Source of the DNA: Escherichia phage vB_Eco_J-01
Sequence record: PQ438393.1
Reading direction: 5' to 3' (one strand)
DNA length: 64,000 nucleotides
Part shown: piece by piece, positions 28,551-29,129 of the stretch
Layout of the letters: the number at the start of each line of letters is the position of its first letter
Numbering within the stretch: the first letter of the stretch is position 1
The notes under the pieces: generated by a model
Told to the model about the DNA's origin: nothing
The model's database searches: none
Seen by the model: only the letters and a program-made list of their open reading frames with translations
Made by a program: the position numbers and the translations under genes

Positions 28551-29129
28551 ATGAGCGATTTATTCTACACAGGTGTTGGTAGCAGAGATATTACAGACGA
28601 AGAATGGGACACTATGGTAGCTGTTGCAAAATGGTTATCTACATGGTTCATTTTACGATCTGGTAAAGCAGAAGGTGCAGATTCCGCATTTGAATGCGGG
28701 GTGTATGATAGTGGAAACAATACAAAGAAAGAAATATACATTCCTTGGCCTTCGTTTAAAGGTAATGAGATAGAGGGAGAGGTTATTGTTCTTGACAGAC
28801 CAGATAGTGTAAACTATGCTCTAACCTTGCAATATGCAAAAGAATTGCATCCAGCTTGGGACAGATTATCTCAAGGTGCTAAAAAATTACATCAAAGAAA
28901 TATCCACCAAGTTCTTGGCAGGGATCTTGAGAATCCAAAACCATCTTGTTTTCTTTTAGCTTGTGCAAATACAGATAAAAATGGAGATCCTTTAGGTGGT
29001 ACAAGAACAGCTTGGATGTTGGCTAAAAAGTTTAATGTTCCTTGTTTTAATATTAGAGGTAAAAGTAAAAAACAAATTTTCGAATTTATTAAGCCTATTT
29101 TAGAGGAGAATGGTCTTGTCCAGAAATAA
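28551..29129 (+). CDS. DprA/Smf-like Rossmann-fold protein
   Basis: ORF track 28434..29129; ATG 28551 after AAGGAG; TGVGSRDIT and SGKAEGADSA resemble DprA motifs. Confidence 0.45.
   Translation: MSDLFYTGVGSRDITDEEWDTMVAVAKWLSTWFILRSGKAEGADSAFECGVYDSGNNTKKEIYIPWPSFKGNEIEGEVIVLDRPDSVNYALTLQYAKELHPAWDRLSQGAKKLHQRNIHQVLGRDLENPKPSCFLLACANTDKNGDPLGGTRTAWMLAKKFNVPCFNIRGKSKKQIFEFIKPILEENGLVQK

Follow-up and report, generated by a model that had tools for sequence, protein, structure and literature searches.

A stand-alone SLOG protein of a phi92-like coliphage keeps the pocket of DprA and may belong to an NAD/ADP-ribose counter-defence toolkit

The single-stranded DNA (ssDNA)-binding domain of DprA was identified by the motifs G-S/T/A-R and F/L/Y-x-x-R-N/D, which Wang et al. 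(PMC3950713) contrast with the LOG signature P-G-G-x-G-T-x-x-E. In SpDprA, RecA is bound by the triad E235/D243/E265 together with the apolar anchor M238, and loading of RecA depends on dimerisation (PMC4066776). DprA/Smf copies in jumbo phages have been proposed as possible ssDNA binders (Iyer et al. 2021), while viral SLOG domains fused to Macro, NADAR and DUF4326 were predicted to sense or degrade ADP-ribose derivatives arising from host immunity (Iyer et al. 2022, PMC9503650). Here we analyse a SLOG gene at positions 28551-29129 of a 64,000-nt stretch of Escherichia phage vB_Eco_J-01 (PQ438393.1), referred to below as the window. An earlier note on this DNA had called the gene product a DprA/Smf-like Rossmann protein with motifs resembling the core with which DprA loads RecA.

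The nearest cellular relative of the phage and plasmid family to which this protein belongs is the DprA domain. As judged from motif and residue alignment, the protein has the pocket of DprA, not its RecA-loading apparatus. We regard it as the best-supported reading, though an even call, that the protein is a stand-alone nucleotide-pocket SLOG module of the phage NAD (nicotinamide adenine dinucleotide)/ADP-ribose counter-defence toolkit, binding and perhaps processing a ligand that bears ADP-ribose.

The gene is a 192-residue open reading frame (ORF) on the plus strand, running from an ATG at 28551 to a stop codon that ends at 29129. Its reading frame holds up, and both motifs quoted in the earlier note lie within it. 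The gene and its conserved elements are as follows.

28551-29129, plus strand: coding sequence of a stand-alone SLOG-superfamily protein, phrog_768 (annotated 'DprA-like'), defined by ORF, PHROG match and structure model
28539-28544, plus strand: Shine-Dalgarno sequence AAGGAG, read from the sequence, 6 nt upstream of the ATG and directly after the stop of the upstream ORF
28569-28595, plus strand: motif 1, TGVGSRDIT, residues 7-15, loop after strand 1, aligned to DprA by hmmsearch and hhalign
28659-28688, plus strand: motif 2, SGKAEGADSA, residues 37-46, loop after strand 2, aligned to S-G-L-A-x-G-I-D of DprA
28743-28757, plus strand: P65-W66-x-x-F69, family-specific loop after strand 3, near-invariant in the family alignment
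28848-28859, plus strand: H100-P101-A-W, family-specific, in the helical insert, from the family alignment
28887-28919, plus strand: L113-H114-Q-R116-N117-I-H-Q120-V-L-G123, matching the DprA base-binding motif F/L/Y-x-x-R-N/D
28995-29015, plus strand: G149-G150-T151-R-T153-A-W, loop and helix, from the family alignment

The predicted ribosome-binding site is strong, and homologues share their start position with the ATG at 28551. A longer, TTG-initiated ORF from 28434 was rejected: it overlaps the upstream gene and lacks homologue support, and it is not the gene because homologues begin at the ATG, which also has the strong Shine-Dalgarno sequence. Justusliebigvirus (phi92-like) E. coli myoviruses, which are virulent, share 98-99% identity with the window, in agreement with the earlier description of the phage as lytic; in Justusliebigvirus genomes the same gene is annotated either as 'DprA-like DNA recombination-mediator protein' or as 'hypothetical protein'.

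An AlphaFold2 model built from an alignment of 70 diverse family members (predicted local distance difference test score, pLDDT, 96.6; predicted template modelling score, pTM, 0.92) shows a Rossmannoid sandwich of five strands, in which a helical insert separates strand 3 from strand 4. Foldseek searches of this model against the PDB returned the following matches.

HpDprA: E = 4e-6 to 6e-5
SpDprA: E = 4e-5 to 2e-4
MoCo carrier protein: E = 3e-5 to 9e-4
ShosA: E = 3e-4
LOG-type proteins: E about 1e-3
ThsA SLOG: E about 1e-3
YpsA: E = 4e-3

TM-scores reached only ~0.5 against DprA, ShosA, MoCo carrier, LOG-type, YpsA and ThsA SLOG alike. On the predicted structure, the protein thus belongs securely to the SLOG fold, and DprA is its nearest solved relative in this comparison, by a narrow margin and at a distance. 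The comparison with DprA and LOG/SLOG folds, which had been suggested as a check, hence bears out the call of a DprA/Smf-like Rossmann protein at the level of the fold, with a confident SLOG Rossmannoid model and DprA closest in Foldseek. A single-sequence PDB search was of no help, its sole match, NSA2, being judged spurious.

Beyond the Rossmannoid core of HpDprA (4LJK/4LJR), SpDprA (3UQZ) and ShosA (8ZVA), the protein shares with DprA a pocket composed of the G-S-R loop, the S-G-x-A-x-G-x-D loop, the L-x-x-R-N helix and the G-G/S loop. G10-S11-R12 corresponds to the ssDNA gate motif G-S/T/A-R (HpDprA G50-R52), with R12 aligned to HpDprA R52; L113-H114-Q-R116-N117 matches F/L/Y-x-x-R-N/D (HpDprA F140...R143-N144) by pattern and position; and the G149-G150 loop occupies the place of the DprA S-G-S (HpDprA G164). 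The resemblance to the DprA core that had been noticed in the two motifs therefore stands as far as the pocket is concerned, both motifs corresponding to it, and L-H-x-R-N adds a second published signature.

The claim that this core is the one that loads RecA overreached. The 192-residue query does not match PF02481 (DNA_processg_A) even at E<=10. PF02481 is the only Pfam family reached by most members of the 70-member alignment, but it is touched weakly (55/70, best E 3.6e-6), and all relatives with listed scores fall below the 29.6-bit cut-off. Against a profile of five solved DprA/ShosA domains, hhalign gave 58% probability and E=1e-4 over only 46 columns, a single beta-alpha-beta unit; against E. 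coli Smf it gave E=2.5e-3. Since hhalign stopped after this first unit, the mapping of later DprA residues rests on motif anchoring, and the equivalences for RecA and dimer residues are likewise sequence anchoring on common motifs, not superposition. On this mapping, SpDprA E235, M238 and D243 correspond to M156, K159 and P164, none of which is conserved as acidic (position 156 is V/M/N/K/E and position 159 K/Q/E in the family alignment), and the region of E265 is absent. Nothing conserved corresponds to the dimerisation zone (Sp 249-275; Hp P183, L196, F205), the equivalent of HpDprA P183 being R169, which varies within the family. The N-terminal part of the ~205-residue DprA domain is missing, because G-S-R already sits at residues 10-12, and the chain stops one helix after strand 5, without the C-terminal beta8-alpha8 dimerisation element. 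Neither a SAM nor a winged-helix domain flanks the core. A role as RecA loader is thus the less likely one, and the protein probably does not fill it, as far as alignment can tell. Net charge and isoelectric point (pI) were discarded as discriminators, the family median pI of 7.1 lying within the canonical DprA range of 5.8-9.2.

The family itself is large in reach and well delimited. The protein matches phrog_768 (E=2.2e-60), whereas Pfam, NCBIfam and PADLOC scans gave no match. Searches with tblastn found homologues in 1,245 phage records from many genera and on 29 plasmids, 12 of them conjugative; the host phages include rV5/phi92-like, PAK_P1-like, T4-like, T5-like, N4-like and jumbo phages. 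When 1.84 billion representatives were searched exhaustively with a profile, 6,048 clusters came back at E<=1e-3, of which 4,885 had E<=1e-10; with no more clusters than these, the family stays apart from DprA, a much larger one, and by profile matching it is compact and does not grade into canonical DprA. Together with the phrog_768 and tblastn matches, this lies well outside what coincidence would give. In the 70-member alignment, 15 positions are invariant, and conservation falls into six blocks: Y-T-G-V-G-S-R, R-S-G-x-A-x-G-A-D, P-W-x-x-F, H-P-A-W, L-H-x-R-N-x-x-Q-V-L-G and G-G-T-R-T-A-W. Within them, G10 and R12 are invariant and S11 is present in 68/70; G38, A40, G42 and D44 are invariant; L113 is kept in 68/70, with H114, R116, N117, Q120 and G123 invariant; and T153 and A154 occur in 68/70 and 69/70, respectively. 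P-W-x-x-F, H-P-A-W, the invariant H114 and Q120, and G-G-T-R-T-A-W are the family's own and not DprA's. Both the gene and its family have entries in existing catalogues, and an ADP-ribose hypothesis for viral SLOGs is in print.

The domains to which relatives are fused point away from DNA metabolism. The 192-residue protein itself is unfused. Among longer members of the family, however, NADAR is fused in four (P0140, P0198, P0121 and P0122; two small and two polyvalent proteins of ~1,480 residues), DUF4326 on either side of the SLOG domain in another four (P0207, P0211, P0221 and P0074), and Macro in an Erythrobacter plasmid protein (L091:4824-6068). The identified partners are ADP-ribose hydrolases, unlike those of DprA, and the fused SLOG domains retain 33-47% identity to the 192-residue protein, with motifs kept (BLASTP level). 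The extra regions of other longer members, P0199, P0214, P0237 and P0248 among them, contain no recognisable domain.

In the two polyvalent proteins, P0121 (1475 residues) and P0122 (1488 residues), a SLOG domain of this family occurs together with YAcAr and LDcluster4 SLOG domains and, at the C terminus, NADAR; much of either sequence is unassigned.

Gene neighbourhoods agree in part with the fusions. ORFs were called and clustered in 85 loci (the window, L002-L005 and L006-L085), which represent 38 lineages. The neighbours within 5 kb were as follows.

PhoH-like ATPase, immediately upstream: 10/38 lineages
ClpP-like protease: 7/38
Nampt: 7/38
Macro (often mislabelled 'phosphatase'): 6/38
Prs: 6/38
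NADAR: 2/38
DUF4326: 2/38
Sir2: 1/38

In 11/38 lineages, the 5-kb surroundings hold a gene for Macro, NADAR, DUF4326 or Sir2, nearly always on the same strand, and adding Nampt and Prs raises this to 13/38. In this phage, Macro, Nampt and Prs are encoded outside the window, and a Sir2-family protein is encoded within it:

32705-33517, plus strand: Sir2-family (NAD-dependent) protein, Pfam SIR2 E=1.3e-22, 3.6 kb downstream of the SLOG gene

Sirtuins are uncommon in phages. With respect to the mislabelled Macro genes, Escherichia phage muut gp066 (L090:47565-48278) carries the label 'phosphatase' yet has a Macro domain (Pfam E=1.1e-6, above cut-off), and Pseudomonas PAK_P1-like phages have, upstream of their SLOG gene, a 'phosphatase' of 152-159 residues that is also a Macro protein (L002:2545-3021 among others).

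The stand-alone SLOG genes of larger caudoviruses, their fused or neighbouring Macro, NADAR and DUF4326 domains, and the co-occurrence in one genome with Macro, Sir2 and NAD-salvage genes all resemble the viral SLOGs of Iyer et al. 2022, to whose set the phage protein may belong. SLOG-style binding of a nucleotide signal, which had been listed as an option at the outset, is by these fusions and neighbourhoods better supported than RecA loading. In a counter-defence module of this kind, the SLOG protein would be made together with the early or middle nucleotide-metabolism genes; it keeps a small positively charged pocket like that with which H. pylori DprA grips one ssDNA nucleotide. R12 would act as the gate, R116 and N117 would contact the base and the G149-G150 loop would complete the pocket, around which the family's own invariant or near-invariant residues (D44, H100, H114, Q120, S132, T151, T153, W66 and F69) are predicted to lie. 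We infer as ligand a nucleotide bearing adenine or ADP-ribose, either a free molecule derived from NAD or an ssDNA base that carries ADP-ribose, which the protein may bind only or also cleave. Its partners would be Macro, Sir2, Nampt and Prs in this phage, and the fused or adjacent NADAR, Macro and DUF4326 in relatives; the purpose would be to neutralise NAD-derived products of host defence.

Several observations weigh against this counter-defence reading. Mutagenesis of DprA has shown that exactly these pocket motifs bind ssDNA, so that the phage protein may have a plain ssDNA-binding role. Hydrolysis is doubtful, because no conserved acidic residue stands at the place of the LOG/TIR catalytic Glu. 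Iyer et al. 2022 put most viral SLOGs in a YpsA-like clade, whereas YpsA scores below DprA against the phage model and, in these comparisons, DprA, MoCo carrier and LOG all lie nearer to the family than YpsA does. NAD/ADP-ribose neighbours are confined to roughly one lineage in three, and these counts stand without a background frequency for phage accessory regions; many of the lineages also share ancestral synteny. The commonest neighbour is PhoH, of unknown function, which lies on the same strand at a median gap of 160 nt; 8 of the 10 PhoH lineages have no NAD/ADP-ribose gene nearby, and a ClpP-like protease follows in 7 lineages. Replication genes adjoin the SLOG gene elsewhere: a primase/helicase in Queuovirinae, and D5, helicase and primase genes in the T5-like Vibrio phage Chester, where the SLOG gene sits between the parts of a split NAD-dependent DNA ligase (L005:2810-4961). 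One plasmid homologue lies near an RdgC gene and a DUF1071 (Rad52-like) gene. Plasmid contexts as a whole are mixed and not decisive. On pNL1 (L092) and Aromatoleum EbN1 plasmid 1 (L093), homologues lie among establishment-type genes for SRAP, DUF736, ImmA/IrrE and SocA antitoxins, one of the two being the homologue with RdgC and DUF1071 close by.

A phage gene with a deletion phenotype, ORF83 of PhiDruSM1, counts on both sides: its phenotype and its reported lack of DprA dimer and RecA residues favour the counter-defence reading, but its link to the phage protein is weak. Plating of the coliphage PhiDruSM1 on AVAST type III falls when its 'Smf/DprA' gene ORF83 is deleted, and likewise when its ligase is deleted (Ojima et al.; 10.1101/2024.04.14.589459 and 10.1101/2025.06.06.658234, cited jointly for ORF83). 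The EVADES preprint modelled ORF83 as an AMP-binding, LOG-like protein without the DprA dimer and RecA residues, and reported relatives fused to DUF4326 in Marseilleviridae. ORF83 was compared with our protein by its published description and residue numbering, not by sequence. The two share the DprA/Smf annotation, the SLOG fold, conserved R-N and T pocket residues, the reported absence of DprA dimer and RecA residues, and DUF4326-fused relatives. Unlike the phage family, ORF83 has a numbering (R89/N90...T112/D114) that implies a more compact protein, with an acidic residue at the place of T153, and in the PDB it is matched best by LOG rather than DprA. The Marseillevirus relative named for ORF83 matches the phage model weakly (TM 0.45). 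The Queuovirinae protein EC151 QSL98935 belongs to the phage SLOG family, with a numbering that differs from the one quoted for ORF83. The quoted ORF83 numbering and the weak Marseillevirus match suggest that ORF83 belongs to a cousin family rather than to the same one.

Among the alternatives, the one that survives best, although we consider it unlikely, holds that the protein is a minimal but genuine DprA, that is, an ssDNA-binding recombination mediator or protection factor that would serve recombination-dependent replication or repair of the phage through host RecA, no recombinase of its own being annotated. DprA is indeed the closest family both by sequence and in Foldseek, both mutagenesis-defined ssDNA-binding motifs are invariant, and an ssDNA-binding role has been proposed for phage DprA/Smf copies, as cited above. 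The gene is part of a long operon concerned with replication and nucleotide metabolism, relatives adjoin the primase/helicase, split ligase with D5/helicase/primase, and RdgC with DUF1071 genes just described, and the fact that loss of ORF83 phenocopies loss of the phage DNA ligase, on a defence described in the EVADES preprint as commonly nuclease-based, would fit repair. Yet what makes DprA a RecA loader is wanting: the residues aligned to its RecA-binding set are variable or non-acidic, the dimerisation zone on which loading depends lacks a conserved counterpart, no SAM or winged-helix domain is present, and the profile similarity is confined to one beta-alpha-beta unit. The identified fusion partners are ADP-ribose hydrolases and not DNA-metabolism domains, and no recombinase or ssDNA-binding protein (SSB) family was found among the annotated neighbour clusters common to at least 3 lineages, several clusters being unannotated. 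The phage genome itself has no annotated RecA/UvsX-type recombinase; its two ambiguous ATPases are AAA+ proteins.

A second possibility, improbable on our estimate, is that a DprA-derived module uses the ssDNA pocket of DprA to recognise ADP-ribosylated bases on single-stranded phage DNA and reverses DarT-type DNA ADP-ribosylation, either alone or by passing the lesion on to Macro or NADAR partners. It would reconcile the invariant ssDNA motifs with the NADAR and Macro fusions. ADP-ribose has been shown to be taken off guanine in ssDNA by the phage NADAR protein T4 gp30.3/AdfN, which overcomes DarTG1, and off thymidine by DarG (PMC11825919, PMC11125620). If this reading is true, DarTG-like systems would face a counter-defence of a new class, and the protein might be a new N-glycosidase with ADP-ribosyl-DNA as its substrate.

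Very unlikely is a LOG-like nucleotide N-glycosidase that would convert AMP/NMP to base and ribose-5-phosphate and thereby feed salvage from Prs to PRPP (phosphoribosyl pyrophosphate) to Nampt, or remove a nucleotide signal. A LOG-like phosphoribohydrolase activity is what the EVADES preprint proposes for ORF83. Unlike LOG/PpnN (PF03641), however, the family lacks P-G-G-x-G-T-x-x-E and has (K)-G-G-T-R-T-A-W in its place, without a conserved Glu; none of the 70 family members hits PF03641 at E<0.1, hhalign against E. coli PpnN gave E=0.2, and Foldseek places LOG ~100-fold below DprA. Equally hard to credit is a pure decoy or sponge, in which a SLOG sensor like that of Thoeris ThsA, without its effector, would soak up a cyclic ADP-ribose immune signal, as ThsA is more distant than DprA, MoCo carrier protein or LOG, fused hydrolases point to a substrate that is processed and not sequestered, and PADLOC gave no hit. 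With both the ThsA SLOG sensor (7UXS) and the MoCo carrier protein (2IZ5), moreover, there is no sequence-level relationship, and ligands and contexts differ.

The genes and signals directly around the SLOG gene are the following.

27474-28220, plus strand: NinI-like Ser/Thr phosphatase, phrog_246, upstream and co-oriented
28220-28540, plus strand: upstream 106-residue ORF, phrog_15301, function unknown, its stop 10 nt before the SLOG start codon
29110-29634, plus strand: downstream 174-residue ORF, phrog_8569, function unknown, overlapping the SLOG gene by 20 nt
29892-29911, plus strand: terminator-like hairpin, then a T-run and a TTGACA box, from a consensus scan only

The NinI-like phosphatase lies near the SLOG gene in 5/38 lineages. 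The downstream 174-residue ORF is probably translationally coupled to the SLOG gene, and the predicted hairpin at 29892-29911 is probably the end of the transcription unit that holds it. Near-identical GC-rich intergenic hairpins, terminator-like in both directions, recur in the window, at 29892-29911, 34266-34285, 32125-32145 and 33887-33916; the stems read AAACCCGC-loop-GCGGGTTT twice and AAAGCCCC...GGGGCTTT twice. In all, 14 terminator-like sites were seen against 3.6 expected. At 32080-32109 there is a perfect 12/12 sigma-70 consensus with an extended TG.

Elsewhere in the window, two plus-strand ORFs of ~190 residues (26568-27140 and 32148-32717) go under the names 'histidyl tRNA synthetase' or 'putative aminoacyl-tRNA synthetase' in the genomes of relatives; as neither has a Pfam hit, the label looks doubtful for both. 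On the minus strand, 58861-60264 encodes a 467-residue protein with four CapR-homology repeats and a T5orf172 domain (RefSeq 'endonuclease'), and the adjoining 60339-61466 encodes a 375-residue AAA+ ATPase that also has weak nSTAND-like NTPase hits (RefSeq 'ATPase').

The label 'DprA-like DNA recombination mediator' is given routinely by annotation pipelines, and over 1,200 sequenced phage genomes carry a homologue of the gene. For this family, the recombination label is probably a widespread mis-annotation. If it is wrong, comparative and phage-therapy genomics assign a recombination function to what is more probably a part of NAD/ADP-ribose counter-defence. The protein is small and, by prediction, well folded, and its family is present in the genetically tractable BASEL coliphages, which makes it well suited for testing the 2022 prediction that viral SLOGs neutralise NAD-derived immune products.

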